Assembly (NCBI GenBank): GCA_944369635.1
Contig: CALVXL010000043.1
Span: forward strand, 1 to 26,434
DNA length: 26,434 nucleotides
Direction: 5' to 3'
From: an uncultured Clostridia bacterium
GTDB taxonomy: Bacteria > Bacillota > Clostridia > Christensenellales > Borkfalkiaceae
Position 1 is the first letter of the stretch. Every line of letters starts with the position of its first letter. A program made the translations under genes and the position numbers. This document shows, one piece after another, positions 3,118 to 21,810 of the stretch. Below the pieces are notes generated by a model that was not told the origin of the DNA, did not search any database, and saw only the letters and a list, made by a program, of their open reading frames with translations.

Positions 3118-3146
3118 TTGATTTTTTACGAAAAAAATATTATAAT
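3118..3146 (+). promoter_or_regulatory. SigmaA promoter of the DJ-1 gene
   Basis: TTGATT(3118)-17 bp-TATAAT(3141). Confidence 0.7.
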
Positions 3147-3208
3147 TTTATCAAACGGAAAACCGTTTGAAACAAGATTAAATCGTTTCTGAAAAAGGAG
3201 ATAGAAAA

Positions 3209-3733: not shown

Positions 3734-3754
3734 GCGATTTCCTTATAACGGCTG

Positions 3755-3789
3755 AAAAAGGCAAAGATTGATGCAATCTTTGCCTTTTT
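3755..3789. terminator. Bidirectional rho-independent terminator
   Basis: aaaaaggcaaagattg-atg-caatctttgccttttt, a perfect 16-bp stem including A/T tails, between convergent genes. Confidence 0.9.
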
Positions 3790-3897
3790 TTATTAAACGT
3801 CATTTCTTAACGGTTTTAAATCCGTCCGCCTTGCGGTTGAATAAGCGCCCCGAAGTAAATTCTTTTGGGCAAAAACCAAACCGCATAGGAGGCAACG

Positions 3898-5970
3898 TCA
3901 ACCTTCCCATGCAAGTATCGGCAAAGAGCCGCCGCCCAAAATCCATACGGTTTCGACAAAACCATTTTCGTAAGAAAGTTCTTTAATATCCTCCGAAGAT
4001 TTCGCAGCAATGCCGTCTCCGCGCCCCGTATCGGCGTTTCCGATGCGGTCTATGGGTGCGAGGGTATTATCGTACAAGCAGTTTTCGTAAACCGTTGCAT
4101 ACGTTCCGCCCACGGTCACGCCGACAAAGCCGCCGACTTTGATTTTCTCGCCGCTCTGCGCCGCGACACTCATCATGGATATACACCGAACGACTTTATT
4201 GTTATAACCTTCCATGCGCCCGATGAAGCCGCCTACGTGCGCGAGAGATTCGTTTTCGTTCGTCAACGAACCACTTGCATAACAGTCTTCCACCCTGCCC
4301 GTTCCCATGTAGCCGACAAATCCGCCACTGTAAGAAACGCTCGTCGTAACGGTGACGTCCGCCTTGCTCTGCTTTATCGTAAGGAAGTTATCCGTAAGCT
4401 GTCCGACAAAACCGCCGCAGAACACCGCTTCTCCTCCCGTGGCGGAAATAACCGCTTCCGCCGAGCAATACTTCCATTCGGAAGCGCGCACGGGATTATA
4501 AGTTTTTCCGACGAGTCCGCCGACCGTACAATCACTTGTTTCCAACGTACCGACAAAGGAAACCGAGGTCATATTCGCATAGGCAACCACCCCGATGACG
4601 CCGCCGACATACGCCGTGCCGTTATTCGATTGCACGACCGCGTCCGCATTGATTTTACAGTTTTCGATCTGCGCACCGCTTGCCGTGCAAGCCAGCACGC
4701 CGAACGCCCCGCCGTTTTCCGTCAGAGTGATATTGACGTCCGCCTCCACGGTGAGATTTTTAATCTTTGCGCCGACGAGAGAACCGAGCACCGCCGCCTT
4801 TACGTTTTTCAACGCAAATCCGTTTCCGTCAAGCGAGCCTTCGAACAGCGCAAAGCTCGCCGCCGCGCTCATATCGATATCCTGCGTCAGTTTATAATGC
4901 CCCGTCGGCTCCATGGCGGCGAATTCCTCCGCCGAAGCGACGGTTTTCGGATTCGCTTCCGAAAACTGCCCGACGCCGAACTTTTCGCTCAGAATTGACG
5001 AATCGAACAGAGTCGAATTGGCGCGCACCTGTAATTCGGAAACATCCGCGTCGAATAACGCCTGCGGAATTTCGTAACGGTTTTCCGTAACCGAAGCGAC
5101 CTCTTCCCCGTTATTGAACACAGTGTAGCCCGTTGCGCCCGTCACGGCGTCCCAGACGAGCGTTTTATCCTCCAGGCGAAGATTGGTCGGCGCAGACAGC
5201 GTTTCCTTTGCAAGATAGACGGAAACTTCCTCGCTGCGCGTCGAATCGAGATATTCTTCGCCGTCCGAAACGGCTTTGACGGACACCGAAATTTCACCGA
5301 CGTACAGATAGCGGAAGTCATATTCCGTAGAGGCGGTTTCGACAATCTTTTCCCCGTTTACGTAAACTTCGTACACGGAAGCGTTCTCCACCGCATTCCA
5401 GCTTACCGCCGTGCCGCTTACCGTTACCGCGGGGGTCGCGAGCGCATATTTCAGCACCAGCGTTTCGCTGTATGCAGAAGAAAGCAACGTCCCCTCGAGA
5501 TTGCCTTTCGCGAGCACCTTGACTTCCGTGCGCTCGGTTGCGGCGTAATCATAATACGTTTCCGAAACGGGATACTGTACCCCGTTGACGTTGACGATAT
5601 ATCCCTGCGCAAACGGGACTTCGTCCCAATTGATCCTGTTCCCGTCCTGCGCGACGTTCTGCGGAACGCCGAGCTGCCAGGTAACGGTCTTGCGCAGCGT
5701 TTCGGAATATTCGCTTTCCTTTTCTCCCGACACCGCTTTCACGCGCATATCGAGAACGCCGTAAACGCCGTCTGCAAGCGTGTAACTGTTTTCTGCCGTT
5801 TCGTATTCCGTGCCGTTGATATCCACGATGTAACCGCTCGCTTTGGCAACTTCGTCCCAAGTGAGCGTGCGTTCTTCAAACGCGAGGTTTGTCGGCGCGC
5901 CGAATTTTCCGCAGGCGGCCAGAAAGCACGCCGCCGCCAGAACGAAAATTAAAAAAAGATATTTTTTCAT
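3898..5970 (-). CDS. Lipoprotein with 4 Fn3-like repeats and a C-terminal GLUG-repeat domain, 690 aa (start moved to ATG 5970)
   Basis: RBS AGGAG, MKKYLF... signal and lipobox LAA-C. Four (P..)xxxWxxVxxAxxYxVxxNG repeats. GLUG-type repeats GGVIG, VGGLVG, CGGFVG, SGGFVG, VGGFIG and VGGFVG. Confidence 0.8.
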   Translation of the reverse strand: MKKYLFLIFVLAAACFLAACGKFGAPTNLAFEERTLTWDEVAKASGYIVDINGTEYETAENSYTLADGVYGVLDMRVKAVSGEKESEYSETLRKTVTWQLGVPQNVAQDGNRINWDEVPFAQGYIVNVNGVQYPVSETYYDYAATERTEVKVLAKGNLEGTLLSSAYSETLVLKYALATPAVTVSGTAVSWNAVENASVYEVYVNGEKIVETASTEYDFRYLYVGEISVSVKAVSDGEEYLDSTRSEEVSVYLAKETLSAPTNLRLEDKTLVWDAVTGATGYTVFNNGEEVASVTENRYEIPQALFDADVSELQVRANSTLFDSSILSEKFGVGQFSEANPKTVASAEEFAAMEPTGHYKLTQDIDMSAAASFALFEGSLDGNGFALKNVKAAVLGSLVGAKIKNLTVEADVNITLTENGGAFGVLACTASGAQIENCKINADAVVQSNNGTAYVGGVIGVVAYANMTSVSFVGTLETSDCTVGGLVGKTYNPVRASEWKYCSAEAVISATGGEAVFCGGFVGQLTDNFLTIKQSKADVTVTTSVSYSGGFVGYMGTGRVEDCYASGSLTNENESLAHVGGFIGRMEGYNNKVVRCISMMSVAAQSGEKIKVGGFVGVTVGGTYATVYENCLYDNTLAPIDRIGNADTGRGDGIAAKSSEDIKELSYENGFVETVWILGGGSLPILAWEG

Positions 5971-5980
5971 TTGAAATCTC

Positions 5981-8524
5981 CTATTCGGCAACATGTTCGA
6001 CAATGCCGTTGACGACGGTATAATACGACGCCCTGTTCAGCATTTCGGCGGTGGTGCCGTCCGCTAAATACGTCTCCACGTAATATTCTTGAGGCAGATT
6101 TTCGATCTGGGAAAGATCGATTTCCACGCTGACGAGCTGACCGTTGGAATATACTCCCTCGGGCAGGTGCGAAAAATGCTGCACCGTATAGGGAACGCTC
6201 ACGGTCTTGAGTAAATTTCCGTTTGTATCGTAAACTTTTGCGACCATATCGATATCCCACGCCGTCCTATCGTCGCCGTACTTCTTGTTGAGCGCGTAGG
6301 TCGAAGCGGTAAGTACCGTTCCGTCGAGGGAATATTCCGCCGCCCCCGCGCCGAAGTCCGCCCGCGCCGTCGCCAGCCCGACGTACATATCGCCCGAACC
6401 GTAGTAAAGATACCAGGTGTTGTCCACGCGCAGCATGGTATCGGCGAACATACATTTATTGAACAGACCGTAATCGTACTTGTTCGTATCCGTAGGATAG
6501 AGCGTGGGCTCGTCAAGATCGTCGGTGATGTTGGTGAGCTCAAACGGGTTAGATTTGGTGGTTTTAAGCACGCCCAGCGCATAGAACCAGCCGTTGACGT
6601 TGGGCTGCTGATATTGGATGTTTCCGTCGGAAAGAGTGCCGCCGCCGTACATGAGATAGATGTTTTCGTCGTCTTCCCCATACAGATTTGTCAGCGCCAT
6701 GCAGGACTCATTGCCTTTGGTGAGCGCTTCAATGCTGTTGGCCCCGAACCCGGAAGTATCGATGTCTACGATGTCCTCCGCCTCAATACGCGTGACGTCC
6801 GTCGTGAATCCGATGCGGGTATAGCCGCCGTCCTTCATATAGATGATGTAGACCTGACCCGTCTTTCCGGGACGCGGATCGTTGATTTTGACGGCGTTGC
6901 CTTCGGGATCGGTTACAAACGTGCCCGACTTATATGCTCCGCCGTAATCGGGCGCGAGCCTGCCCACCTTAGTAAACGTTTTGAAATCAAAGGTGTAAAT
7001 CATCCCCTCGCGCGTTACGGAGTTATCGTACATAGTGTAAGTAATATAATACGTCGTCCTTCCGCCGCGGTTGGGATCGTTTTCGATTTTGAAAATTCTC
7101 GGATCTTCCAGCCCGCCGCCCGCTTCGTCCGCCGAAGTCGGCCAGGCGATGGGGTTATTTTCTCCGCGGATATAATTGACTCCGTCGTAAGAATACGCAT
7201 ACGAAAGGGTTGACATGTGTCCGAGCTCATATTTGGGTCTGCCGTCTCCCATAAAATAATAGCGGAAGTTATCGGGAAGTTCCGTCCTGTAAATCATATG
7301 GAACATTCCGTTTTCCTCGTCGTAGATGACGGCGGGGTTATACGTTGCGTAGGATTCGAAACCGGGGATATCGCCGTCGGCGATGCTCGCCATGTCGGTA
7401 ACGACGCCGTCCGCCTCGATAGGATAGCCGATGGGCGCGAGGATCAGCCCCGTTTCGTTTGCCGTGATATTGCTCATCGCCGTCCAAGCGGGAGAATTTT
7501 TGGAAAATTCCATCACGCTTCCGAGCGGCACGCTTTCAATGCTTGCCCAATCGTAAAGTTCGAAGGAATAGAACGAGAACGTGGACTCCCACGGCAGTCT
7601 TCCGGTCTTTTTGATTTCCTCCATCGTTTCGCGCTGAATGAGCTCGATTTTGATGTAACGCGCGGTGGTCTTTTCGGAAAGCGTCCAGCTTTCCACTTCG
7701 CCGAGCCCCGCGTCGGTGGAGAAAATTTCCTTCCAGCTCGCGTCATCCCGGGACGGAGCGCTCGAGCCGCTCGCCGCGTAAATCGCATAGCGGCGGGCAA
7801 AGGAAACTTCCCAGCGGATTTTCACGGTATCGAAAGTCTTATCCTCGCCCAGATCGATGATAACGTACTGATTGTCTTCCTGCGCGGACGCCCAACGGGT
7901 GTTCGCGACGTTATCGACGATATTTTCCTTCTTATGCACGTCAGCCGCTTCGTAGCTGGAAACTTCCAGCACTTCCACGCCCTCGCCCGTGGCGAGGTTT
8001 TTCGGCCCGTACACTTCAAAACTGTAGAAGGAATAACCGTAATCGGTAGCGCGGCTCACGCCCTGAAACCTGACGAATCGGGTAGTGAGGTAATACGGAA
8101 AGGTGATGACGTCCTTCGACTGTGCGTCCTTTTGAACCACCGCGACGTCCGTCCAGGTGATCGCGTCCATGGAAAGCTGCAATTTATATTCCGAAGCGTA
8201 AGCGGCTTCCCAGTCGATGACGATCTTATTGATCTTTTCGGTATTGCCGAGATCCACGTAAAAATACGCGTCGTCTTCCCCTCTGGAAGCATAACGGGTA
8301 TCGGGATTTGCGTCCACGGCATAAGTATTGAGAACATCCCCGCTTTCGGCTTCCGTGGAAGATACCCGCCTTCCGTAAGCCAGATCTACGCCGTATTCCG
8401 TTTCCGCGCCCCGTGCCGTTTCCGTTTTCAGCCCGCCCGCCGAAAGGGCGAACGTCATGCCGAGCGCTAAAAACAGCAGAGCGCAAAGAATTCTGATCGT
8501 TTTGCTTTTGGTTTTCGATAACAT
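5981..8524 (-). CDS. Secreted GH130-family beta-mannoside-active enzyme with two N-terminal CBM32 (F5/8 type C) modules, 847 aa
   Basis: Signal peptide. Two discoidin modules (AVDANPDTRYAS..YFYVDLG..IDWE..YASEY; IVDNVANTRWAS..IIDLG..IRWE..FARRY). GH130 motifs YNPAVI..YR, GLEDPRI, YYITYT and WYLYYGSGD. Confidence 0.85.
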   Translation of the reverse strand: MLSKTKSKTIRILCALLFLALGMTFALSAGGLKTETARGAETEYGVDLAYGRRVSSTEAESGDVLNTYAVDANPDTRYASRGEDDAYFYVDLGNTEKINKIVIDWEAAYASEYKLQLSMDAITWTDVAVVQKDAQSKDVITFPYYLTTRFVRFQGVSRATDYGYSFYSFEVYGPKNLATGEGVEVLEVSSYEAADVHKKENIVDNVANTRWASAQEDNQYVIIDLGEDKTFDTVKIRWEVSFARRYAIYAASGSSAPSRDDASWKEIFSTDAGLGEVESWTLSEKTTARYIKIELIQRETMEEIKKTGRLPWESTFSFYSFELYDWASIESVPLGSVMEFSKNSPAWTAMSNITANETGLILAPIGYPIEADGVVTDMASIADGDIPGFESYATYNPAVIYDEENGMFHMIYRTELPDNFRYYFMGDGRPKYELGHMSTLSYAYSYDGVNYIRGENNPIAWPTSADEAGGGLEDPRIFKIENDPNRGGRTTYYITYTMYDNSVTREGMIYTFDFKTFTKVGRLAPDYGGAYKSGTFVTDPEGNAVKINDPRPGKTGQVYIIYMKDGGYTRIGFTTDVTRIEAEDIVDIDTSGFGANSIEALTKGNESCMALTNLYGEDDENIYLMYGGGTLSDGNIQYQQPNVNGWFYALGVLKTTKSNPFELTNITDDLDEPTLYPTDTNKYDYGLFNKCMFADTMLRVDNTWYLYYGSGDMYVGLATARADFGAGAAEYSLDGTVLTASTYALNKKYGDDRTAWDIDMVAKVYDTNGNLLKTVSVPYTVQHFSHLPEGVYSNGQLVSVEIDLSQIENLPQEYYVETYLADGTTAEMLNRASYYTVVNGIVEHVAE

Positions 8525-8533
8525 TGTAAACTC

Positions 8534-10951
8534 CTATTCGCTTAATAAATTAAAACCGAGAATATCCACAAGCACGAGCTGCGCATAGAGCGAACACGGC
8601 CAGGTAAAATAATCTCTGCTGTATTCCGACGGATTGTTCGCATTGAAAGCTTCGTGCATGACGAACATACCGCCCGTCGTATCCGTCATATATTTCACGC
8701 AAAGTTCCTTTTCCGCTTGATTGGTGCTTGTCAGCCCCTGCATCGCGATTGCCATATGCCAGGGAACGGGCACGTTTTTATGCGGATTTTCGGAAGAGCC
8801 AACCATATCGTGCGGATCGCCGATGCCGCTGGCATATTCGCCCTCATAATAATAGGGATTGTCGTCGCTCAGCGCAAAAGCGCGGGTGTTGAGGTAGGTT
8901 TCATCTTCGGCATCGCAATACCCCAGCCACGGCGCGGAGATAAGGCTTGGAATATTCGCCGCGTCCATCAGCAGTTTTCCCTCCGCAGAATTCGGATCGG
9001 CGTTGGTACCGTCCACTTCAAACGCGTAAATCCTGCCGTACGTCGGGTGATTATAAACGCCGTATGTTTCTATCGCCTGCCTGATTGACGAAGCAAAGGC
9101 CGCCATTTTATCGCGCAAATCGGCATTTAGCCCGATTTCGTCGAACATTTCGACCATATCTTCCAAAGCGGCAACGACGAACATATTGCCGGGAATATAA
9201 AACTTATAATAGCACACGTCGTCGCTCGGACGGTAGCCGCTCCAGATCAGCCCGCAGTTTTCAAAATCGTTCACGCCTTTTTCCTTATCCACATCGATGA
9301 CGGAGTAATTCGCGTCGCTGTGCGCGGTTTCGCTCTGCAAAACGGCGAGCAGTCTTTCCAGCGTTATTTCGAAAAAGCGGTTGAAAATTTCCGTATCGCC
9401 CGTGATGTCGTAATACTGTTTCGATAGCCATAACGGATAGCAGAGGGAATCGAGTTCGAATTTTCTTTCAAACACCGAGCCGTCTTCGTTAAACGCGTTG
9501 GCATACGGATCGCGGCGGATCAGCTCGAACTGTTTGAGCAAAAGCCCGCGCACGGTGTTCCGAACGTCTTCGTCAATCTTCATGAATTGCAGATATTGCA
9601 ACACCTGTGCGGAAGAATCGCGCAGCCACATGGCGTGAATGTCGCCGGTATAGCAAAATACGGTGCCGTTTGCATTATAGCGCAGCACGCCGTTATACGT
9701 ACCCTTGTCGTTGGTAAAACCGTCCAACGTAGCGTAAAACGTATTCGCAAAGGTCTTTTTCATGTCCGGATCCTCGATGGTTTCCGTCAGATTATCCACC
9801 GTTTCCCGCATGACGGAATAGGTCGGGTTGGTATTGACGTCCCTCCTGCAGTCAAACGCCGTTTCGTCCGTCAGCGTCATCGGCAGTTCCGTATACAGCG
9901 TGTTCAGCGCTTCAAAGGATACGGCGCCCCATTCTTCGCGGGAATTATCCACGATTTCGAGATACACCGCTTTGCCCAGATACTTCGACAAATCGAGATA
10001 ATAAAGGTGCGTGCTCTCTCCGTGCTCCGTCTTCCAGCGGTCGGAATACGTTCTGAACAGTTCTTCGTTTGTGCCGCATTCCATGACGGAAAGATACGTA
10101 AGGTCCGGATTTTGCGTCATGCCCAGCCGATAGGAGATGATCCCCGTACCCGAAACGGTAAACGCGGGCGAACGCAGCACGCCGACCGAGCCCGACGCGC
10201 TTTTGTTCGACAAGCGCTTTTGCGAATCGATCTGCGAAGCGGTGAAACAATCCGCTTCCCCCGCAGTCTGCCAACCCGTTAATCCGAGGGAGAAATCGGC
10301 GTTTTCGGGCACGCTGGGCGTGGACTCCGCACCCGCGTATAGCGGTTTGACGTCCTCTGCCGTCATATACGTTTCATCGGGCTCGCTTTCGTAATAAGTT
10401 ACAAAATCGTCAAAGCAGATATATCCGTAATTCGCCGTGGAACGGTCCACGATTTTAATGCGCGCCGTCTTGCCCAGCGCGACGGAAAGATCCGCTTTAT
10501 AGGCTTTCAGAACGTCGCTTGAAGAAGTTTCGAACGCCGTATTCCCGAAACGGAACAGTTCTTCGCCCGTTTCGCTTTCCACTACGGAAACGTAAGTCAG
10601 TCCCGCATTCATCGCGCCGCCGAGGCGAAATGTGATAAATCCGCTTCCGCCGATTTCAAACTCGCCGGAAAGAAGCGTGCCTTCCGCGCTTTCGTTGTAT
10701 TTCGTAAAATAGTAAGTTCCTTCTTTATTGTTGCCCTTTCCGTCGGCGGTTAAGAGGGAATCGGAAATTCCGAGGACGGAAAACGCATTTCCTTCCGCGC
10801 TCCATCCCGTAAGATCGCCGCTTTCGAAACCGCCGTTTTCAACGCGGTATTTCGCCGTGTCTCCCGTAGGCGCAATTCTTCTCGAAGAACAAGCCGCGCC
10901 GACGGCGGAAAACAACAATGCGCTGACGCACAGACAAATCAGTTTTTTCAT
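8534..10951 (-). CDS. Lipoprotein GH125 exo-alpha-1,6-mannosidase with two N-terminal CBM38-like beta-sandwich modules, 805 aa
   Basis: Lipobox GAA-C. GH125 motifs TGDIHAMWLRDS, DPYANAF, ERKFELDSLCY, RPSDD, YAFEVDG, MDAANIPSL, IGDPH and MHEAF...WPCSLY. Confidence 0.9.
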   Translation of the reverse strand: MKKLICLCVSALLFSAVGAACSSRRIAPTGDTAKYRVENGGFESGDLTGWSAEGNAFSVLGISDSLLTADGKGNNKEGTYYFTKYNESAEGTLLSGEFEIGGSGFITFRLGGAMNAGLTYVSVVESETGEELFRFGNTAFETSSSDVLKAYKADLSVALGKTARIKIVDRSTANYGYICFDDFVTYYESEPDETYMTAEDVKPLYAGAESTPSVPENADFSLGLTGWQTAGEADCFTASQIDSQKRLSNKSASGSVGVLRSPAFTVSGTGIISYRLGMTQNPDLTYLSVMECGTNEELFRTYSDRWKTEHGESTHLYYLDLSKYLGKAVYLEIVDNSREEWGAVSFEALNTLYTELPMTLTDETAFDCRRDVNTNPTYSVMRETVDNLTETIEDPDMKKTFANTFYATLDGFTNDKGTYNGVLRYNANGTVFCYTGDIHAMWLRDSSAQVLQYLQFMKIDEDVRNTVRGLLLKQFELIRRDPYANAFNEDGSVFERKFELDSLCYPLWLSKQYYDITGDTEIFNRFFEITLERLLAVLQSETAHSDANYSVIDVDKEKGVNDFENCGLIWSGYRPSDDVCYYKFYIPGNMFVVAALEDMVEMFDEIGLNADLRDKMAAFASSIRQAIETYGVYNHPTYGRIYAFEVDGTNADPNSAEGKLLMDAANIPSLISAPWLGYCDAEDETYLNTRAFALSDDNPYYYEGEYASGIGDPHDMVGSSENPHKNVPVPWHMAIAMQGLTSTNQAEKELCVKYMTDTTGGMFVMHEAFNANNPSEYSRDYFTWPCSLYAQLVLVDILGFNLLSE

Positions 10952-10972
10952 TGCACACTCTCTAACTTAAAA

Positions 10973-13900: not shown

Positions 13901-14683
13901 GTAGGCAAAGGAATACATGCCCTCCGCCGTCGCCGCTATTCCGTTTTCCGTAACCGTTGCGCTGTCAACCGCCGCCGCGTCGTATACTGCAGCCTTTTCT
14001 CCCGTCGTCGGGTTACACACGGTCACTTCGTCCCCTGCCGAAAGGTAAATCCCGTTCGCTTCATATATCCCGTTTGCTTCCGTCAGGCGATACGTCTGAT
14101 CGGCAGGATTGCTCAGATCCTTCCCTCCGATCGTTCCCGCAAGATAGTAATTATCGTAATCGAACGTATACTTTACCACAAAGTCCTTGTTTTCCGTCAA
14201 CTCCGAAGGATTTTGCAACGCCGCTTCCGCAACCTGTTTCACCGAGCGCGTCTGCGCGGGCGTATACGTCGTCACGCCGTCCTTTTCCATATAGAATACG
14301 GCGGTCAGAGCGGTGGAATACTGCGATACCGGTATACCCGCGATGACGACGTTGAACTCGTATTCCCCGTTCTTCAGCACGCCGTCAAGCCCTTCGAAAT
14401 GCACCGCTTCGGGATAGTTCCCCTTTTCCAGCGGCGTGTCTTCTGAAAGCATCTTTTCGGGGATGACCAGCGCCCCGATATTAACTCCCTCCGCCTTTTC
14501 TTCTTCCGCTATCGTCGCGGTAAAGCGTATGCCGTCGGGAGATTTCGTGCGAACGGACGCCCCGTTTTTCATCGCAAAGGAACTTTCTTCCGCCGCAAAT
14601 GCCGCGCTCATGCCGAACGCCGCCATCGCAAAACAAAATACCGTCGCCAAAACGATTACGATTCGTCTCTTCATCGCTTTCAT
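10973..14683 (-). CDS. Large secreted, apparently non-catalytic modular protein (N-terminal unknown domain, X2-like and cadherin/Ig-like modules, two C-terminal CBM38-like modules), ~1236 aa; the start could also be 14689
   Basis: Signal peptide ending AFA-A. X2-like repeats (NYRVSGERLTIAKEYLATL; YFTVKASYLSTLGYGKTVLTV; LVISGSYL). Cadherin-like FTYTATDNNG. NGGFETG and NGNFDTDLTGW modules. ATG 14683 overlaps the stop of the upstream peptide (ATGA). Confidence 0.78.
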   Translation of the reverse strand: MKAMKRRIVIVLATVFCFAMAAFGMSAAFAAEESSFAMKNGASVRTKSPDGIRFTATIAEEEKAEGVNIGALVIPEKMLSEDTPLEKGNYPEAVHFEGLDGVLKNGEYEFNVVIAGIPVSQYSTALTAVFYMEKDGVTTYTPAQTRSVKQVAEAALQNPSELTENKDFVVKYTFDYDNYYLAGTIGGKDLSNPADQTYRLTEANGIYEANGIYLSAGDEVTVCNPTTGEKAAVYDAAAVDSATVTENGIAATAEGMYSFAYDASTKTLSVKSYAEHKNAPLIYLAGETNVYLAGTGADLYYTVKAFGESFTLKNGENEIASENYRVSGERLTIAKEYLATLSAGKATLTVVTANGSADFEVYGANRPTANEGSQNVTKFTEEVISNELLRVSADEGCVLTSFRFVGAKSYDYIEEVQDAETSYTEPVVSEDGKSVSGNFGVITLNDGNKSFDFDRAAGWFGTVYFTYTATDNNGFTSDAVTMDVVYKQRMPEIGEKDDKVYYKASGSGETADIVYTITNAEGVSDAEIVAVENGGAALEAGKDYTLGEKSGNYRYFTVKASYLSTLGYGKTVLTVYTARGRNTVTISVVDKLVAENAAAIDKNAPQDVTFNLSGYPLEVVNCSLDSALYTFDGETGVFTVKAAAAESFSYGENVVTVDNGYGALELKIVVTDSRAPELKSEEITYLRNSSVGVKVEFFMYDKSFVSLYQGGNEVDAADWNFEQNILTVSGEYVDEAAGEQTSLGFVAKMSDGTEIPFTVQIEESGSQPTVANTGDYDIARVNDIISDLDLAGATQAKLSYGMEEVSADKWKIENGADGDKLVISGSYLNEIYRFGQTEYTFILSTEDGSVSFTVTYANAASEILNGGFETGNLYGWNAYSIWKNEEGMMAWTDDRVVNGGYFDQNFDYNRDGNYNLGIYGGNISKDSGQERMGILRSSDFVLGGSGWISFKLGGGKNSDFAYVSVKETATDKEVARFGNQNFGDTGKSGTENAEAYMFQYYFDLTSVGALGTSYYITLNDTASNMWCVLSADSFFTYHETAPNIDGGYLAENILPEIQGVGAGGDTIVNGNFDTDLTGWSDPSGIYKTESGYIISNNVGGDGATGVLRSSAFRITSDKMYIRFDWAGALRYDKQMFVSVKEVGTNIEVLRFVRRDNLSEKQNGDFDNHLLDLSSLSVDKEYYIELADNTDASWGVFKADSFRLIDAAEYNGITAGDRAVSVSGINTDFGYKLPYTV

Positions 14684-14802
14684 TTCCATGCTCCCTCCCA
14701 CGGCCAGTTTTCCACGTAATCGTCGTCGACCAGACTCGACAAAATCACGTCGCTTTCCACCGAAACCTTTTTAAGTTCGGGAGATTCATACTTCCTTCTC
14801 AT
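14680..14802 (-). CDS. Unannotated 40-aa peptide MRRKYESPELKKVSVESDVILSSLVDDDYVENWPWEGAWK
   Basis: Below the ORF-track cutoff. Strong RBS AAAGGAGGG lies 6 nt before ATG 14802. It is on the operon strand, fills the intergenic gap, and its TGA overlaps the next gene's ATG (ATGA). Confidence 0.8.
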   Translation of the reverse strand: MRRKYESPELKKVSVESDVILSSLVDDDYVENWPWEGAWK

Positions 14803-14870
14803 CTTTTTCCCTCCTTTATCAATATAATTTTATAGCAATACCTCCGAAAAAACTTTTGGTCTTTTTCCTT

Positions 14871-17792
14871 TTATTTTCCCGGCTCCGTCAGCGTAACCGC
14901 GCCGATATAAATACCCGTGCCGACCGCAAACGCGGAACCGTCCGTATTGGTCACCGTAACAAAACTGATTTCCCACTTGTTGTTGTCGTACGTTGCCCAC
15001 GCGCTGGCTTCAACCCATTTTACACAGACTTTCGCATAGCCTTCGGAATTTGCCGCGATGGTAGTGGTATACGTTCCCGACGGGCGATCGCACGTCACCG
15101 TAATTTCCTTATCCGTGGGATTTTTGATCCACATATACGCTTCGAATTCTCCCGAAGCGTTTTCGGGGATGTTCTGCCCTTTTACGAAACGCATCTGGAA
15201 AGATGTCGTGCTCTCCGCCGCGGACTGGATATAAAAACTTCCCTCCGCCGAAGCGTTGTTTTCGTCCTTTGCTCCCTTTACATAGGAATAATCATACGCC
15301 GCCCTGTGTCCGCCGTGCGGGTTGAAATGGAATCCGCCCTCGCTGCTTTCAAACGCAAAGACGCTGTCGCTGCCGTACACACCGCCCGTAATCGTGCCGA
15401 TGTAGAACGGTCCGCCGTCTTTGCTGCTGTCGTCGGCCAGGATAAATTCGATGACGTGATCGGGATTTTGCATCCAGTCATCCTGCCAGATCTCCGTCCA
15501 CATCGGCATGGAGCAGTCCATCGTAATATACTGCCATTGTCCAGGACTTACCGTCTGGTTATGGTTGTTTTTCTGCAAAAGATTGATCACCGATTCCTTG
15601 CTTCCGGCGTTATAAAACCAGAAACCTATGTAATCGAACTGCGACAAATCGTTGATCGCCGAAGAAATGACGAACGTAGGCATATTGTTGGGCGTCCCGA
15701 CGATTTTAACGGCGTTTGCGAGTTCTTCCGCGGACGGCTTTTCATAACCTTCCGCACCTTCGGGCAAAACGGCGTTGGGAACCAACTCCAGCGTGACGCG
15801 CTTTCCGTAGCTTCTAATCTGGTGCATACCCTCTTCGTCGTCGAGATAAGCGATGACGTTTTCACGCGCCTCGATATCCGATACGTACAGCGCGATTTTC
15901 TGTACGTTCGAATTGCCTGTTTCGCCCTTGGCTTCCACTACGTAATACCAATCTCCTGCGACATCGGGCGTTAAAACGCCGTCGGTGATTGCAACGCTCG
16001 AACCGTCGGGACGGAGCGCCGACCAGGAAATATATTCTTCGCCGAGCGCTTCGCCGCCCAAAGTGATTTCACAATCGGGAATGACGATCGGCTCGCCCGC
16101 CACCGCAAACCTGGGCGTGTTCTTCACCGTTATTACGGGTGAAGAGTCGCCGATTACCGCTCCGATGTAGAATCCGTCGCCGGCGGCAAAGTTGCTGTCA
16201 TCCGTATAATAAACATCCAAAAAGAACATCTGCCAGGGATTGTTATCGAAACGCATCCACGCATTGTCCTTATCGCTTCTGATCACCATAGGCACATACG
16301 CGGAGGACTTAGGCGCAACCGTTCCCGTTATTTTAACGCTTTCCGACGTTTCGGTCACAAATTTCAGCGTTTTCGTTTCGTGCGGGTTATAGACCCACGC
16401 TTTGACAAAATAATCTTTCACGAGGGAAGCGTCCGCCGTAACGTTCTTAGCCTTGATGAAACGCGCCTGAATGCTGGACGTGTTCTTGATTGCAAAGAAA
16501 TGCGTGCTGCCGACGCCGCCATCTTCTTTAACTGCCGTCGTATAGGAGTAACCGCTGACGTCGCGGTGCGCAACGTGGGTGTTCATATGCATTCTGCCTT
16601 CGGGCAAATCGAACGCAAAGACCGCATCGGAAGAATAATGATATCCGGAAATGCCGCCGATATAAAGCGCCCCGTCGAAAGAAGTCTGCTGAATATCGTC
16701 GTACAAGCTGAGTTCGACAACATGATCGAAGGGTTGCATTGCGTTCCACGCTTCGTTATACTGGTCCGCGCCGCAATAAAGCGCCATGAACTGCCACTGT
16801 TTGGGCTGAATGGTGTTCTGATTGAGGTTTGCAAAGCTGATATTCAGCGAAACGACGAGCGATGAATCGTTATATGCCCAGAACCCGATATAATCGTACC
16901 CGGACAAATCGTAGATCGTGGGGCTGATCAGTATGGAAGCACGCACGCCCTCCGCAGGATCGACTTTCAGCGCGCCTTTCAGCTCTTCGGCGGAGGGTTT
17001 GGGGAATTCCTCGCTGCCCTCAGGTAAATTCTCGTTCGTGACATAAGACAAATCTTCGTCTCTGTTTGCGAAAGGACGCACCTGTTGCATACCCCATTCT
17101 TCGTCGAGATAAGCGATTTTATCTTCCACCGGATCTTCGTCGATGACGGTGAGGTCGTATTGTTTTTCCACCGTGTTGCCGCCGAGGTCGGTCACTTTGA
17201 TCTTATAGGTCCATTTGCCGACCGTATCCGCGGTAAACCAGCCGTCTTCCGCCGTAGCTTCGGACCCGTCGGGACGAAGAATCTTTAAATCTATGTTTTC
17301 TTCGGGAATATCGTTATTATCCTCGATCGTGAATTCCGGCACGGGAACTTTTTGGTTCAGAAGCGCGAAATTCGCGATCATTTTATCGCCTACGGTAGGC
17401 GCTTCACTGTCCGAACACTGGAAGGCTTTTACCGCGTCCGCCACGCCTTCTTTCGCGCAGGTATACGTTACTTTATAATTGCCGGGAATATTCGGCACCA
17501 AAAACATGCCGCCCATTACGTTGGCATTGCCGCCGTTCGGGTCCGCAACGCTTTTGACGGATACTTTGTATTCATTGCCCGTCATCTTTTCTCCTTTCTT
17601 ATCGACGACATCGGGAATGGCAATCGTATACGTCTTGCCGAGCTCCGCCATAGGCAGACTCAGCGTTTCCACGTCGATCTTGTAATCGGAATCGGGAGTC
17701 GGATTTTTCTCCCCTCTGTTACAAGCGACAAATACCGCCGAAAGTACGAATAACATCATGACTACGGCTACTGCTGACAATAACTTTTTCAT
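14871..17792 (-). CDS. Lipoprotein with an internal ~421-aa tandem duplication (Ig-like plus two CBM-like jelly-roll modules per copy), 973 aa
   Basis: RBS GGAGG and lipobox FVA-C. Paired motifs: LRPDGS at aa172/593, IAYLDEEWGMQQVR vs IAYLDDEEGMHQIR, KPSAEEL twice, DLSGYDYIGFWAYN vs DLSQFDYIGFWFYN, and FDNNPWQ vs YDNNKWE. Confidence 0.8.
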   Translation of the reverse strand: MKKLLSAVAVVMMLFVLSAVFVACNRGEKNPTPDSDYKIDVETLSLPMAELGKTYTIAIPDVVDKKGEKMTGNEYKVSVKSVADPNGGNANVMGGMFLVPNIPGNYKVTYTCAKEGVADAVKAFQCSDSEAPTVGDKMIANFALLNQKVPVPEFTIEDNNDIPEENIDLKILRPDGSEATAEDGWFTADTVGKWTYKIKVTDLGGNTVEKQYDLTVIDEDPVEDKIAYLDEEWGMQQVRPFANRDEDLSYVTNENLPEGSEEFPKPSAEELKGALKVDPAEGVRASILISPTIYDLSGYDYIGFWAYNDSSLVVSLNISFANLNQNTIQPKQWQFMALYCGADQYNEAWNAMQPFDHVVELSLYDDIQQTSFDGALYIGGISGYHYSSDAVFAFDLPEGRMHMNTHVAHRDVSGYSYTTAVKEDGGVGSTHFFAIKNTSSIQARFIKAKNVTADASLVKDYFVKAWVYNPHETKTLKFVTETSESVKITGTVAPKSSAYVPMVIRSDKDNAWMRFDNNPWQMFFLDVYYTDDSNFAAGDGFYIGAVIGDSSPVITVKNTPRFAVAGEPIVIPDCEITLGGEALGEEYISWSALRPDGSSVAITDGVLTPDVAGDWYYVVEAKGETGNSNVQKIALYVSDIEARENVIAYLDDEEGMHQIRSYGKRVTLELVPNAVLPEGAEGYEKPSAEELANAVKIVGTPNNMPTFVISSAINDLSQFDYIGFWFYNAGSKESVINLLQKNNHNQTVSPGQWQYITMDCSMPMWTEIWQDDWMQNPDHVIEFILADDSSKDGGPFYIGTITGGVYGSDSVFAFESSEGGFHFNPHGGHRAAYDYSYVKGAKDENNASAEGSFYIQSAAESTTSFQMRFVKGQNIPENASGEFEAYMWIKNPTDKEITVTCDRPSGTYTTTIAANSEGYAKVCVKWVEASAWATYDNNKWEISFVTVTNTDGSAFAVGTGIYIGAVTLTEPGK

Positions 17793-17827
17793 ACAAATTC
17801 CTCCTGAATTATTTTTTATAGATGAAG

Positions 17828-19402
17828 TTATTTGATAAGTCTCAAAAGATCGGGATTTTCCGCATTGATTTTGGTGAAGCGCTGCTGCATTTCAGCCGGC
17901 GTTTCCGTTTTATGGAAGAACTGTCCTTCCACATAACCGACGTCTTTCAATCCGCCGGCATACATGATCGGGTATTTCTGATTATTTGCGACCATATGGA
18001 AATCGTCGCCCATCGCTTCCTTGACCGACTCCGTAAAGCTGTTGAACACGAAATCGGTCGTATCGAACCCGTAAGGCATGCTGAGTCCCAACTGATCCAT
18101 GGTAAAGAGCGCCTGCGCGGTATCTCCGGCAACGAACTTCAAAAACTGTTCCGCAAGTTTATACTGCGCGCCGTTTTTGTTGAGCCGCGGTACAACCATG
18201 ACGTGCTGATCGGCCGTAACCTGCCCCGTATAACGCAGAACGGAAATGCGATCGTAATCCGCTTCGCTCACCCCCAAAGACGCGTTCCATTCTTCCTTTG
18301 CGTCCACAGCGGAAACGACATTTCTCAAGGTCTCTTCCGAAACGTTTTCCGTTTCCAGTGTTTCGGTTATGCTGGAAATGATGGGTATTTTCATAAAGCG
18401 TATGTCCACGCCCGCCTTTTCGATGTCGTCCTGCATTTCTTTATAGACCCAGTCGCCGTTGATCATAAATGCAGACTTGGTCGTATCGTCGCCGTAACCG
18501 AGCCCCAAAAAGACCCTCTGCGCCTGCTGAAAAGTCAGATAATCGCATTTATTGTAGGAATATCCGCCGTAATCTACCGCCATGTATATGGGATACAGAA
18601 CTTCCAGCGCGGCGAGCCTGCCGGGATCGTCGAACGTTTTATATAAATCTTCCTTCGTCTCGCTCTTTTTATAGGTGATCGAGCCGTCGGGATTGGTTTC
18701 GGGATAATAGCCGAGGTAATAATAGTCCCTGCGCTCGCCGGAATACTGATTCCAAAGCGTCTGGAACACGTTATTCGAATAACTGCCTTCCGTATACATG
18801 ACAAAAGGAGCTACGGTGCCGTTGCTCGTCGTCAGAACGTCTTCACAAAGTTCCAGCAATTCGTCCGTCGTGCGCGGCATGGAATAATTTCCTTCGCCGA
18901 AAACTTCGTCGAGGATCGTTTTGTTATAAACGAACCCGGCAAACCCCGTCGTCCACGGCATCTGATAAACCTTTCCGTCATCCGTTTCGTAGTATTCCCA
19001 GATGGATTGATTCATCCTCTCTTTCAGCGACACGTCATAACCTTCCTGTACGGAATTGAACACTTCGGAAAGATCGTATAAATATCCGTCGTTCTGATTT
19101 GCGAACATGGAATCTACCGATACGATGATGTCGGACGTATTCGCGGTGGAGCGCACGATGGCTTTGATGGCGTCGCGGTCGGTGGTTTCCGTGATTTTTA
19201 CCTTACAGTTCGTATACTCTTTTTCGTACGCCGCGGCAATATCGTAAAGCCACTGCACGCCGTAACCCGCTTTAAGAATTTTGATTTCCAGCGTTCCTTC
19301 GTAATATCCCTGTTCGTTCAGTTTTTCCGTATTTCGCTGATTACAAGCCGTCATTGTGAAAATTAAGACGACGCAAAGCAGGATACTGAGTAGTTTTTTC
19401 AT
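17828..19402 (-). CDS. Extracellular solute-binding lipoprotein of carbohydrate ABC-transporter type, 524 aa
   Basis: Lipobox MTA-C. SBP-like segments GYLYDLSE, GKVYQMPW, VYNKTIL, AFMINGDW and AEQFLKFV. RBS AGGAGG. Confidence 0.85.
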   Translation of the reverse strand: MKKLLSILLCVVLIFTMTACNQRNTEKLNEQGYYEGTLEIKILKAGYGVQWLYDIAAAYEKEYTNCKVKITETTDRDAIKAIVRSTANTSDIIVSVDSMFANQNDGYLYDLSEVFNSVQEGYDVSLKERMNQSIWEYYETDDGKVYQMPWTTGFAGFVYNKTILDEVFGEGNYSMPRTTDELLELCEDVLTTSNGTVAPFVMYTEGSYSNNVFQTLWNQYSGERRDYYYLGYYPETNPDGSITYKKSETKEDLYKTFDDPGRLAALEVLYPIYMAVDYGGYSYNKCDYLTFQQAQRVFLGLGYGDDTTKSAFMINGDWVYKEMQDDIEKAGVDIRFMKIPIISSITETLETENVSEETLRNVVSAVDAKEEWNASLGVSEADYDRISVLRYTGQVTADQHVMVVPRLNKNGAQYKLAEQFLKFVAGDTAQALFTMDQLGLSMPYGFDTTDFVFNSFTESVKEAMGDDFHMVANNQKYPIMYAGGLKDVGYVEGQFFHKTETPAEMQQRFTKINAENPDLLRLIK

Positions 19403-19520
19403 TTTTGCTCCTCCTTTTTCTGATTTTTTCGCGGCTCTTTGCTTTTTACCGCTTGCGCGGCGTTCTGCTGCGCCGCCAAAATCCTTTTACGATATCAAAA
19501 AGCGAACTTTCGGCGCATTT

Positions 19521-20387
19521 TTACAAAACGCCTTCTTTTTGCAGCGCGATTTTGATTTTCGCTTCATCCGCCGCCGTCAGTTTTCTGAACGGTCTGCGGG
19601 CGTGTCCGCACGGAATATCCATCAATGACAAAACGTATTTTATGCTTTCGATCAGGCCGCATTCGCACACACAACGCACGAGCTCGTTCACGCCGTGCTG
19701 TATTTTCAGGGCTTCTTTCATGCGATTGCCGTCGAAAAGCTCTTTGATTTTGATAAAATTTTTCACCATGAAGTTGAACGTGGAACCGATTCCGCCGTCC
19801 GCACCCGCCGCCAGCGCGGAAAGAAAATCTTCGTCCTTTCCCGAATAGACGATCTTCCCCGTATGCGAACGGATCTGTTCGAGAACGAAATAGTCGGTAT
19901 CGGTGAATTTTATGTATTCCACGCGATCGTCGGCAAGAAGCGTTTCCAGCTGCGAAACCGTAAAACCGTTGTTCGTAAGGTCGGGAATGTTATAGATCAT
20001 CATCGGCAATTTTGTCTTTCGCGCAAGGTCGTGGTAATACGCCGCGATTTCGTCAAACGAAAAGCGAAAGTAAAACGGCGGTACGCTGGAAACGGCGTTC
20101 GCGCCCGCTTTTTCCGCATGCGCGGCGAGCGTTTCCGCAGGGATTGAGCCGACCGTTCCGATATTTGCAATGACGAATGCCCCGTCCGCCGCCTTCACCA
20201 CGGTTTCGAGCGCGGCCATCCGCTCTTCCTCGCTCATCAAAAAACATTCCGCCGACGATCCGCCCGCGTAAATCCCGTCCGCACCGCTGTCCAGCACAAA
20301 GCGGACAAGCTTTTTCAAAGCTTCGTGATCCACGCTCTCGTCTTTTTTGAATGGCGTTACAACGGGCACTAAAATCTTGTTGTTCAT
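19521..20387 (-). CDS. nanA: N-acetylneuraminate lyase-like aldolase (DHDPS/NAL family), 288 aa (start moved to ATG 20387)
   Basis: VVTPF, GIYAGGSSAE, PPFYF, IYNIP, Schiff-base IKFTD and GADGGIGSTFN (a NanA-type signature). RBS GGAGGA and ATGA overlap with the upstream gene. Confidence 0.75.
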   Translation of the reverse strand: MNNKILVPVVTPFKKDESVDHEALKKLVRFVLDSGADGIYAGGSSAECFLMSEEERMAALETVVKAADGAFVIANIGTVGSIPAETLAAHAEKAGANAVSSVPPFYFRFSFDEIAAYYHDLARKTKLPMMIYNIPDLTNNGFTVSQLETLLADDRVEYIKFTDTDYFVLEQIRSHTGKIVYSGKDEDFLSALAAGADGGIGSTFNFMVKNFIKIKELFDGNRMKEALKIQHGVNELVRCVCECGLIESIKYVLSLMDIPCGHARRPFRKLTAADEAKIKIALQKEGVL

Positions 20388-21478
20388 AATTCCTCCTCGA
20401 TATTCCATTTCGTAAACCAAATCGCCTGTCCGCCCGTTTTTTCAGACCGCTGATAATAAACGGTCAAAATCTCTCCGTCGCACAGTTCCGCGCTCGCGGG
20501 GTATCCGAGATCCCATCCGTCCCCGTCCGAACGCAGAATGATTTCTTTGCTCCAACTCTTTCCGCCGTCTTCGCTGATGCGGGCGCGCTGTCCGAACGGC
20601 GCGATCCTGCGCCCGTACGTCAGCACGATTTTTCCGCTTTTTGTCAATAGCAGGTGCGGCGGCGAACCGTGAAATTCTTCTTCCCCCACGGGAATGCGCT
20701 CCGGCACGGAAAAACTTTTTCCGCCGTCTTCCGAATAACACTGATAGATGGAAAACAGCCCTTCTTTCTGCGCACGGATATGTACCAGTATTCTGCCGTC
20801 CGCAAGTTCCAGCGCATGCGGTTCGCAAAACAGCACGCCGTCTTCCTTTTCTTTCTTTGGCAAAGGGATCCAAACCGGATCGGAAAAGGAAACGCAATCC
20901 CCCGTCGAAATGCAGCCGATCCTGTTTTCCTCGTCGCATTCCGCCCCGGTAACGTCCTCATGGTAAAAATTCCGCCCCACGTAAAGCAGTTTTCCGCCGC
21001 GCGTTTGTGTGAACCCGTGCGGCGACGTTACGGGTAATTTCCCCCAATGCTGCAAATTGCAGTCGCCGTCGAATACCGCGTAAAGCGATCCGAAGTATTT
21101 TCCTTCGTCGGCGTCGGATACCGTGGCGAGATATTCGTCGATCAGCTTTCTTTCGGAAGGCGGATACTCCCATTTTTCCTCGCATTTTTTCTGAAACAGT
21201 CGGGTATTGTTGAACGTGGTCAGCACAAACCCGCCGCGAAACGGCGTGACGCCCGCGTCGCGATCGTCCAAAGGCGTGTCGAATAAGACAAAGGGTTTGC
21301 TCCAGCTTTTTCCGTCGTCTTTTGAAATACTTGCGGCAACTTTTCCGAACGGACACACATGTTTCATTCTGAAACCTGAGCTGACCGCGATCAGCCGTCC
21401 GTCACGCAATCTGGCGATGCTCGGCCACATGAAGTTCTTTTTTCTGCCTCTGCCGGACATCACTATTCCGTGTTCCAT
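20384..21478 (-). CDS. Cytoplasmic BNR/Asp-box beta-propeller, sialidase-like (GH33-related) protein, 364 aa
   Basis: Asp-boxes SKDDGKSWS, SEDGGKSFS and SEDGGKSWS. Also FCEP..EL, HIR and LGYP. No signal peptide, and no RIP motif (MWPS instead). Confidence 0.75.
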   Translation of the reverse strand: MEHGIVMSGRGRKKNFMWPSIARLRDGRLIAVSSGFRMKHVCPFGKVAASISKDDGKSWSKPFVLFDTPLDDRDAGVTPFRGGFVLTTFNNTRLFQKKCEEKWEYPPSERKLIDEYLATVSDADEGKYFGSLYAVFDGDCNLQHWGKLPVTSPHGFTQTRGGKLLYVGRNFYHEDVTGAECDEENRIGCISTGDCVSFSDPVWIPLPKKEKEDGVLFCEPHALELADGRILVHIRAQKEGLFSIYQCYSEDGGKSFSVPERIPVGEEEFHGSPPHLLLTKSGKIVLTYGRRIAPFGQRARISEDGGKSWSKEIILRSDGDGWDLGYPASAELCDGEILTVYYQRSEKTGGQAIWFTKWNIEEEL

Positions 21479-21617: not shown

Positions 21618-21641
21618 GCCCGAAAACAACCGTTTTCGGGC
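21618..21641. terminator. 10-bp stem-loop (terminator-like on the plus strand, or an operator)
   Basis: gcccgaaaac-aacc-gttttcgggc followed by ttttt on the plus strand. Confidence 0.4.
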
Positions 21642-21727
21642 TTTTTACCGCTGCGTTTTTATTGTTTTGCGTTTATGCTTCCCGCATATACCGACGGCCG
21701 CATTTTGCTGATTATTTTATAACAAAA

Positions 21728-21759
21728 GGCGGACCTTTGCCGATCGGCAAAGGTCCGCC
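21728..21759 (-). terminator. Rho-independent terminator of the marR-MATE-kinase cluster; a perfect 32-bp palindrome
   Basis: ggcggacctttgccga|tcggcaaaggtccgcc followed by ttttgtt on the minus strand. Confidence 0.85.
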
Positions 21760-21810
21760 CGCTCGCATCGCTTTTTTATCCGCTTTCGCGAAAGCAATTT
21801 TCCGCCTTTT

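Follow-up and report, generated by a model that had tools for sequence, protein, structure and literature searches.

Two described systems come closest to the locus analysed here. In Bacteroides thetaiotaomicron, the GH130 enzyme BT3780 and the GH125 enzyme BT3781 of the mannan polysaccharide utilization locus (MAN-PUL) target beta-1,2-capped fungal alpha-mannan (PMC4599007, PMC4978465), BT3781 acting in the periplasm on imported oligosaccharides (PMC4978465). In Thermoanaerobacter sp. X-514, the cluster Teth514_1785-1796 codes for a solute-binding protein (SBP), two permeases and two cytoplasmic beta-1,2-mannoside phosphorylases of the GH130 type (PMC4264767). More generally, a Gram-positive polysaccharide utilization locus (gpPUL) has been defined as a locus that combines an enzyme for polysaccharide degradation, a system for transport and a regulator (Sheridan et al. 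2016, PMC5320581). Here we describe a row of nine genes on a contig of 26,434 nt (CALVXL010000043.1, in the following C43) from the metagenome-assembled genome (MAG) of an uncultured Clostridia bacterium of the family Borkfalkiaceae; the entire contig is called the window. The row is a mosaic of two separately conserved sugar-utilization cassettes and not one conserved system. We hold with moderate confidence that it is real, probably a single transcription unit, and that it arose when the head of one glycan locus was joined to the tail of another.

The nine genes run from 21478 down to 3898 on the minus strand and comprise eight large open reading frames (ORFs) and one of 40 aa, all co-directional and numbered g1 to g9 in this order. 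Genes g1-g4 (21478-14871) constitute the head and g5-g9 (14802-3898) the tail. Neither among about 200 genomes of the family (G labels) nor among 19 loci from other Bacillota (L labels) was the full 17.6-kb row found. The initial annotation of this DNA had proposed one conserved new system, which therefore had to be given up in favour of two joined cassettes: each half is syntenic elsewhere, together with permeases and a regulator of its own, but the whole row is not. For the head this is seen in G177, a member of another genus of the same family. There, a divergent AraC gene is followed by homologues of the BNR protein g1 (64% identity), the NanA-like g2 (71%), the SBP g3 (62%) and g4 (60%), then by two permeases, a 474-aa protein and a GH127-like protein, and nothing similar to g5-g9 lies within 40 kb. 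The head is found in the same order, with single-unit g4-like genes and permeases, in G018 and G121; orthologues of g1 (45-64% identity) lead the cassette in all three genomes. In G177 and G018 the g3 orthologue precedes the g4-like gene(s), which in turn precede the two permeases. Altogether, in the three related genomes the head is accompanied by an AraC regulator, by two ABC permeases and by a further lipoprotein of ~470 aa.

The tail is conserved over larger distances, its order being kept in more than 12 Bacillota MAGs. A GH125 gene with two copies of a module here called NGG, a GH130 gene with two CBM32 modules and the gene of a lipoprotein with FN3 and GLUG repeats follow each other in G166, G005 and about 15 loci, which stem from MAGs of Clostridia, Bacilli, Erysipelotrichia, Acholeplasmatales and Izemoplasmatales. 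Wherever flanking DNA was available, the GH125 gene with the same N-terminal modules is located directly upstream of the GH130 gene, and g1-g4 were never found beside the tail cassette in such loci. In G166, L037, L039, L041 and L046 the trio follows what we regard as the canonical upstream set: a cytoplasmic GH130, an SBP, two permeases, a DUF1861 protein and a ~490-aa lipoprotein with two NGG modules. Across L035-L047 the gene order is kept at 51-75% protein identity in distant Bacillota classes, including wall-less-type lineages, which suggests that the whole tail cassette has spread laterally.

The counterparts of both halves are present in the MAG of the window itself (G000; 1.42 Mb in 174 contigs, 76% complete), of which seven further contigs (C13, C18, C37, C54, C93, C130 and C165) are relevant here. 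C165 carries the same upstream set as the canonical tail loci and closes with a 97% identical copy of the 40-aa ORF plus the initial 71 codons of g6. C54 begins with a copy of the last 404 codons of g4 (91% identical), after which come two permeases with 79-80% identity to their G177 counterparts and a lipoprotein of 465 aa. An AraC homologue is located on C18/C37, and on C37 a LacI-type gene precedes the mannoside-locus head. In this MAG, C37/C165 hold the importer and the phosphorylases for mannosides, and C54 the permeases of the head cassette. We also note three genes at 1972-6597 of C37, between an AraC fragment and the mannoside-locus head, which by eye, judged by their N-terminal sequences, resemble a trehalase (GH37), a GH112 lacto-N-biose phosphorylase and the LacI-type regulator.

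The two cassettes meet at 14819-14868 (no strand assigned). These 50 nt are unique and have no counterpart on C54 or C165 according to blastn within the MAG. To their right, 14869-16083 is 91% identical to C54, where the g4 copy is followed by the permeases, and on their left 14469-14818 matches the C165 end with 97% identity; the homology to C54 ends at 14869 and that to C165 begins at 14818. The window sequence occurs in chicken-gut metagenomes of at least four studies, and Logan contigs of two independent studies bridge the junction (X1, 14765-15138; X3, 14271-14940) with 2 and 6 mismatches. Because the junction is unique and bridged by independently obtained contigs, the join is not an assembly chimera. 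A second joint, 16149|GTC|13590, was found in two other chicken-gut studies (runs X3 and X5). Read on the coding strand, the fusion leads from g6, at about residue 364, precisely into the beginning of the second g4 repeat. Of the eight variants listed for the contig with this hybrid joint, five coincide with C54, which suggests that a hybrid g6N::g4C gene sits upstream of the C54 permeases. It is plausible that two ancestral loci swapped tails, so that the window would combine head A with tail B, and C37-C165-(hybrid gene)-C54 head B with tail A. As the MAG is incomplete and possibly mixes strains, this swap is unproven.

How does this row compare to the described systems? With the Bacteroides MAN-PUL it shares an exported GH130 that adjoins a GH125. 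The best PDB matches include BT3781 for g7 and BT3780 (5a7v) for the g8 profile, whose Asn, Arg, Glu-Asp, Lys (K-S-G) and Asp fall on the BT3780 active site (PMC4599007). Beta-1,2-capped fungal alpha-mannan is proposed as the target here as well. However, the layout is that of a monoderm, with lipoprotein or secreted enzymes and an ABC importer that replaces SusC/D; no match to SusC/TonB-dependent receptors or SusD was obtained in the window ORFs scanned. Both enzymes carry modules of the carbohydrate-binding module (CBM) type, whereas the Bacteroides enzymes do not. Partners of families GH76, GH92 and GH99 are missing from the window, the GH130 enzymes are not orthologous (47 bits, the cut-off being 550), and the GH125 enzyme, periplasmic in the case of BT3781, is predicted to reside on the outer face of the membrane. 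The logic of the Thermoanaerobacter cluster matches the canonical upstream set of C165, G166, L037, L039, L041 and L046, but that cluster has no surface GH125, exported GH130 or large binding proteins, and the window, conversely, represents the surface part only, without genes for import or phosphorolysis. Like a gpPUL, the row unites co-directional carbohydrate-active enzymes and an ABC-type SBP in a Firmicute, with CBMs and lipoproteins in the binding role of the Sus proteins. It contains enzymes (GH125, GH130), but of a transport system the SBP only and no regulator, and falls outside the definition, within which the canonical relatives G177 (AraC plus ABC) and C37/C165 (LacI plus ABC) lie. 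The parallel to Sus loci drawn earlier, of binding proteins that accompany surface enzymes, already bears the name of Gram-positive PUL (PMC5320581), and a window without permease and regulator does not belong to this kind.

That the nine genes are transcribed together is probable from their spacing and from the hairpins that bound them. The distances from g1 to g9 are -4, 118, 35, 68, -4, 21, 9 and 10 nt; the two overlaps are of the ATGA type (20384-20387 for g1/g2, 14680-14683 for g5/g6), and all nine frames are intact, with ribosome binding sites (RBSs) and coupled starts. The ORF list and our inspection of the junctions thus agree with the nine co-directional genes and gaps of at most 118 bp reported initially, provided that the 40-aa ORF is counted. 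Upstream, an intrinsic terminator on the minus strand (21727-21760; 15-bp stem with 10 GC pairs and a T-run, dG -33.5 kcal/mol, z -6.05) closes the preceding cytidylate-kinase-like/MatE unit. Downstream, a bidirectional hairpin flanked by A- and U-runs (3755-3789, both strands; dG -19.7 kcal/mol, z -6.53) separates g9 from a convergent DJ-1/PfpI gene. This is the strong terminator noted initially beyond the end of the row. Inside the row a scan for consensus terminators detected no strong one, and the two largest gaps fold no better than shuffled sequence. The only RNA-labelled run had almost no coverage of the window and probably is DNA. In the leader region of g1, a 10-bp GC-rich hairpin followed by a T-run (21618-21641) reads as a terminator on the plus strand, where there is no obvious gene to be terminated.

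Four of the gene products (g3, g4, g7 and g9) have a lipobox of the PROSITE type, while g6 and g8 have type-I-like signal peptides and, in a motif scan, no LPxTG sortase motif. This bears out the previous count of four lipoproteins and two secreted modular proteins. In the following, Pfam results refer to the scanned window ORFs of at least 100 aa.

The GH125 lipoprotein g7 (8534-10951, minus strand, 805 aa) covers the entire profile PF06824 (positions 1-414 of 414) with 373 bits, the cut-off being 23.4, and matches seven solved GH125 sequences, including BT3781, SpGH125 and CpGH125, with E-values of about 1e-75 to 1e-80. The catalytic residues of BT3781 are Glu174 and Glu439 (PMC4978465). Both glutamates (E174, E439) and the Asp of the RPSDD motif are kept in g7: its FERKFE, RPSDD and MHEAF fall on ERKWE, RPSDD and MHE(S/G)F in the alignments to 2p0v and 2nvp. 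This Asp we take to be the general acid of CpGH125. With 360 residues of N-terminal modules ahead of the catalytic domain, g7 is predicted to be a membrane-tethered exo-alpha-1,6-mannosidase.

The adjacent g8 (5981-8524, minus strand, 847 aa) begins with an export signal (basic N-terminus, hydrophobic core of hydropathy 2.8, ALS-AGG site), followed by two F5/8-type-C (CBM32) modules, a GH130 domain of divergent sequence and, at the C-terminus, a beta-rich extension. Full-length orthologues of 61-95% identity occur in G005, G166 and about 15 loci. The GH130 domain is recognized by PF04041 with 48.6 bits (cut-off 26), and NCBIfam gives only weak matches, to beta-1,2-mannobiose phosphorylase and to the BT3780-type mannosidase. 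A profile of 15 orthologues finds 3taw, 7fip (a beta-1,2-mannobiose phosphorylase) and 5a7v (BT3780) about equally well in the PDB (E ~3e-17). Using the active-site residues described for BT3780 (PMC4599007), the invariant Asn62, Arg79, Glu139-Asp140, Lys198 and Asp378 of g8 align on Asn74, Arg89, Glu141-Asp142, Lys199 and Asp363; E139-D140 lies in GGLEDPR and aligns on GGCEDPR, and the likewise invariant K198-S199-G200 on CKSG. In the GH130 family, a Glu/Lys (E/K) pair marks beta-1,2 specificity, and hydrolases are marked by a signal peptide (PMC4599007, PMC7660257), while beta-1,4-acting enzymes have a Y/R pair (PMC7660257). The cytoplasmic GH130 family of the canonical tail cassette, which shows E-D, DNKD and HRP motifs, also has the E/K pair. 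When this family is compared to g8 by hhalign, Arg225 falls on Asn271, Arg233 on Met291, His252 on a gap and Arg195 on Lys230, in a stretch where alignment confidence is low. In the same low-confidence stretch Glu272 of g8, adjacent to Asn271 within an invariant N-E-S-C, resembles the T-Glu268-Cys of BT3780. The replacement of three of the four invariant basic residues leans towards a hydrolase, as far as this weakly aligned stretch allows. Both hydrolysis, as opposed to phosphorolysis, and beta-1,2 specificity are predictions for g8. Stand-alone GH130 relatives were sought as a set for BT3780-like mapping. This attempt was abandoned, as only truncated copies of the same multidomain family were returned; no close stand-alone relatives of the g8 GH130 domain were found.

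That both mannosidases have export signals and CBM-like modules could be corroborated: a lipobox and two NGG modules in g7, a signal peptide and two CBM32 modules in g8. No CBM was present on any of 6308 GH130 sequences in a survey from 2020 (Li et al., PMC7660257), and the architecture of an exported, CBM-bearing GH130 thus was unrecorded at least until then.

The NGG module comprises ~150 residues. Four copies were located by module alignment in the window, all on the minus strand, two at the C-terminus of g6 (11558-12106 and 11057-11497) and two at the N-terminus of g7 (10379-10852 and 9881-10324), and 66 in the fetched loci. It has no match in Pfam and no sequence match in the PDB. Its model (pLDDT 97) is a jelly-roll, the nearest folds being CBM61, a porphyran-binding CBM, CBM4/6/16/22 and MAM domains with TM scores of 0.5-0.6; judged by this model, the module is CBM-like, with no family assigned. 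A relation to CBM38 was considered and rejected, as neither CBM38 nor CBM66 is among the top 50 Foldseek matches, and the searches of Pfam and PDB sequences also gave nothing.

Besides these two NGG modules, the secreted and anchorless g6 (10973-14683, minus strand, 1236 aa) contains two CBM_X2 modules and a Big_9 domain. Proteins similar to g6 flank the tail cassette in other MAGs. The lipoprotein g9 (3898-5970, minus strand, 690 aa) consists of about four FN3-like repeats and a C-terminal domain with GLUG motifs (Pfam Glug, weakly also Peptidase_M26_N). It has no PDB sequence match, its protein-atlas clusters contain only fn3 and Glug hypotheticals, and its homologues in related loci are always encoded directly downstream of the GH130 gene. 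The tail begins with g5 (14680-14802, minus strand), a putative 40-aa ORF with an RBS and the ATGA overlap to g6. It shows a basic start, a YxxPxL-like motif and a Trp-rich acidic end, and has a second copy on C165 (215-334) with 38 of 40 residues identical and the two changes, R3K and V25I, conservative. Each of the two MAG copies is coupled directly to a gene of the g6 type, and none of the related loci has a homologue.

Within the head, g3 (17828-19402, minus strand, 524 aa) is the SBP lipoprotein of a carbohydrate ABC importer (Pfam SBP_bac_1, lipobox). The lipoprotein g4 (14871-17792, minus strand, 973 aa) is a tandem duplication of a unit of ~425 aa without any Pfam family match. An AF2 model of residues 28-548 (pLDDT 91) shows two Ig-like and two beta-sandwich domains, for which Foldseek reports SGBP-B of B. 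ovatus, tandem CBM22 and CBM51. The g4 family has 66 representatives among 1.84 billion proteins, mostly of a single unit and 500-600 aa in length. On the basis of the model we predict g4 to be a non-catalytic surface glycan-binding protein. The earlier impression that the large accompanying proteins are non-catalytic agrees with this fold and with Pfam scan and motif check, which revealed neither an HExxH motif nor an enzyme family in g4, g6 and g9; it is reasonable to regard the three as putative binding or spacing proteins.

The first two genes are of a different kind. The product of g1 (20384-21478, minus strand, 364 aa) matches BNR_2 with 46.5 bits and has the sialidase fold and three Asp-boxes. 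Its only PDB match is the uncharacterised 5hx0, and its protein-atlas clusters are labelled 'exo-alpha-sialidase family' (~358 aa). As no signal peptide was found, g1 is predicted to be cytoplasmic; for g2, too, no export signal was detected. The latter (19521-20387, minus strand, 288 aa) is a class-I aldolase (DHDPS, 211 bits) nearest to N-acetylneuraminate lyase, with 221 bits against TIGR00683 (cut-off 382). The designation as a mannoside operon does not suit these two genes, a sialidase-fold protein and a NanA-like lyase. Genes nanE or nanK are absent from the window and an epimerase of the AGE type was not found. A NanE gene (167 bits) is located on C93, unlinked to the window, and because of its presence in the MAG, N-acetylneuraminic acid (Neu5Ac) stays among the possible ligands of the head. 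On C93 (4816-7140) this gene for a ManNAc-6-P epimerase adjoins that of a 502-aa protein, DUF4127-like by eye, with two large exported proteins alongside; the region may be the remainder of a sialic-acid route. A literature search for pairs of cytoplasmic BNR_2 and NanA proteins brought up nothing relevant.

From these features a working model can be proposed. The head would be the front part of a locus built around an importer, with an acidic oligosaccharide of the sialic- or ulosonic-acid type as its ligand: g3 and the Ig/CBM-like g4 would capture the ligand, and after import the sialidase-fold g1 and the aldolase g2 would process it in the cytoplasm. The tail would be the surface-enzyme end of a beta-1,2/alpha-1,6-mannoside locus widespread in Bacillota. 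Here, g8 would hydrolyse off beta-1,2-linked mannose and g7 would trim the exposed alpha-1,6-mannose at the cell surface, while the two kinds of module (CBM32, NGG) would, together with g9 and the X2-rich g6, keep the polymer at the surface. In the canonical form the products would be imported by the SBP/two-permease importer and split by the cytoplasmic GH130 and the DUF1861 protein, the latter presumably of the family of Leishmania mannogen phosphorylases. The row of the window would work with transport and regulation supplied in trans, since the importer and permease genes are located on other contigs (C37/C165, C54). A beta-1,2-mannosylated alpha-mannan is indicated as the substrate by the pairing of an exported E/K GH130 with a GH125, to which the canonical form adds the cytoplasmic E/K GH130 and DUF1861. 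Since the cassette echoes both BT3780/BT3781 and the import-and-phosphorolysis cluster of Thermoanaerobacter (PMC4599007, PMC4978465, PMC4264767), the most likely substrate, as judged from the sequences, is fungal mannan of the Candida type, phosphopeptidomannan or another microbial beta-1,2-mannan.

A more far-reaching idea, which we regard as tentative and rather unlikely to hold in full, is that the tail and g4 form a multiprotein glycan-harvesting assembly on the cell surface of monoderms, analogous to the Bacteroides utilisome, with at least three undescribed families of binding modules (NGG, the g4 sandwich and GLUG) that are exchanged between loci by boundary-exact recombination. The head/tail mosaic and the g6N::g4C joint in two other metagenomes would fit such an exchange at exact gene and module boundaries. 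If true, surface enzymes could be re-wired to a different regulon and importer through module exchange.

Several points weigh against the working model of a sialic-acid-type head and a beta-1,2-mannoside tail in one operon. In g1 the N-terminal motif reads, by eye, MWPSIARL instead of xRIP, and g2 scores 271 bits with the NCBIfam model for N-acetylneuraminate lyase, PRK04147, just below its cut-off of 281; with no obvious RIP motif and a sub-cut-off lyase, the ligand of the head may be one other than Neu5Ac. With 47 bits, g8 is far below the cut-off of 550 for the BT3780 equivalog NF058598; its GH130 domain is not a BT3780 orthologue and would be BT3780-like in function at best. The g8 region corresponding to the catalytic glutamates of BT3780 (Glu227, Glu268) has no confident alignment and was left unaligned by HMMER, and one basic residue, Lys230, persists at a phosphate-site position. 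The locus contains neither an endo-mannanase (GH76/GH99) nor an alpha-1,2/1,3-mannosidase (GH92/GH38), which implies trimming only and not the full degradation of branched yeast mannan. The status as one operon is read solely from spacing and hairpins. The MAG is fragmented and 76% complete; C43, C54, C165 and C37 may be paralogous loci or co-assembled strains. Lacking permeases and a regulator, the row could be a by-product of rearrangement that is now decaying.

Host N-glycans had been suggested as the substrate next to yeast mannan. Of the two, yeast-type mannan is sensible, but the N-glycan reading turned out to be the weaker one. It would make the row a dedicated operon in which the head imports and desialylates fragments and cleaves Neu5Ac by its lyase, while the alpha-1,6 arm and the core beta-mannose are taken off by the tail, the fusion being an adaptive co-regulation for host or dietary glycoproteins. 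The sialidase fold with three Asp-boxes of g1, the proximity of g2 to N-acetylneuraminate lyase and the NanE gene elsewhere in the MAG fit this reading. Furthermore, some GH130 enzymes cleave Man-beta-1,4-GlcNAc (PMC4599007) and GH125 enzymes are reported to act in N-glycan breakdown in Streptococcus pneumoniae (PMC5215778). However, the window is devoid of an endo-beta-N-acetylglucosaminidase (ENGase; GH18/GH85) and of GH20, GH2, GH29/95, GH38 and GH92, that is also of hexosaminidase, galactosidase and fucosidase, and g8 has the beta-1,2-linked E/K pair and not the Y/R pair of beta-1,4 enzymes (PMC7660257). Elsewhere the tail is accompanied by the E/K cytoplasmic GH130 and DUF1861 but never by sialic-acid genes, and the GH127-like gene next to the head in G177 points away from N-glycans. 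We therefore judge a dedicated N-glycan operon to be unlikely.

Less probable still is that the row is a non-adaptive remnant, in which recombination between paralogous surface-protein genes cut off importers and regulators and which is poorly expressed or heading for loss. No permease (BPD_transp_1), ABC ATPase or regulator is encoded by the scanned ORFs of the 26-kb contig, the AraC and LacI homologues as well as both permease pairs lie on other contigs, and the further g6/g4 hybrid joints in other metagenomes speak for ongoing shuffling. Against a remnant speak nine intact frames with RBSs and coupled starts, conserved catalytic residues and a junction that recurs in samples of two independent studies; moreover, enzymes at the surface can be of use even where no transporter is linked to them, since the genome still holds the importers. 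That the halves were artificially joined by mixing of two strains or loci in the bin is very improbable, although near-copies of both junction sides stand on contigs that end exactly there (C54 with 91%, C165 with 97%) in a MAG of 174 contigs and 76% completeness, as the 50 unique nucleotides offer no shared repeat for a chimeric join and contigs assembled independently in two other studies span them with 2 and 6 mismatches.

Horizontal acquisition of the row, judged from its GC content, was rejected: the value of 0.519 lies close to the mean of the genome, 0.493. The compositionally foreign part is the left flank (1-3800, GC 0.41) with an integrase and a tRNA-Gln, rather than the gene row. 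Within this flank, a segment of low GC (0.39-0.41) extends over 1-3003; its tyrosine integrase (1436-2755, plus strand) adjoins the 3' end of tRNA-Gln(CTG) (2929-3003, minus strand), and 46 nt at 2928-2973 are exactly repeated on C13 (68-23). The segment looks like an integrative element inserted at tRNA-Gln, with the C13 repeat as a possible second att copy. At the other end of the window, 122 nt (25683-25804) are shared with C130 (19859-19980) at 90% identity; they lie within or beside an unannotated ORF of 222 aa (25655-26323).

We found no equivalent locus that has already been characterised, but the enzymes follow the logic known from BT3780/BT3781 (PMC4599007, PMC4978465) and from the Thermoanaerobacter cluster (PMC4264767). 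The row represents a known type of locus in rearranged form, not a new system. The gpPUL concept, the rule for GH130 hydrolases and the function of GH125 are already established. New is the occurrence of this cassette in a Clostridia-type MAG from the chicken gut, where it is divided and has been joined to an unrelated cassette's head, and the evidence for boundary-exact module shuffling among surface proteins.

What is known of the degradation of yeast and fungal mannan in the gut comes almost entirely from Bacteroides. A cassette that is conserved in Bacillota and as yet uncharacterised would show how monoderm gut bacteria gain access to beta-1,2/alpha-1,6-mannosides, which is of relevance for poultry, often fed yeast-cell-wall products; in addition, this cassette holds a GH125 with an undescribed CBM-like module. 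The specific value of the window is an evolutionary one: it presents such loci as modular, cut and re-joined at gene boundaries, with surface enzymes becoming separated from their importers.

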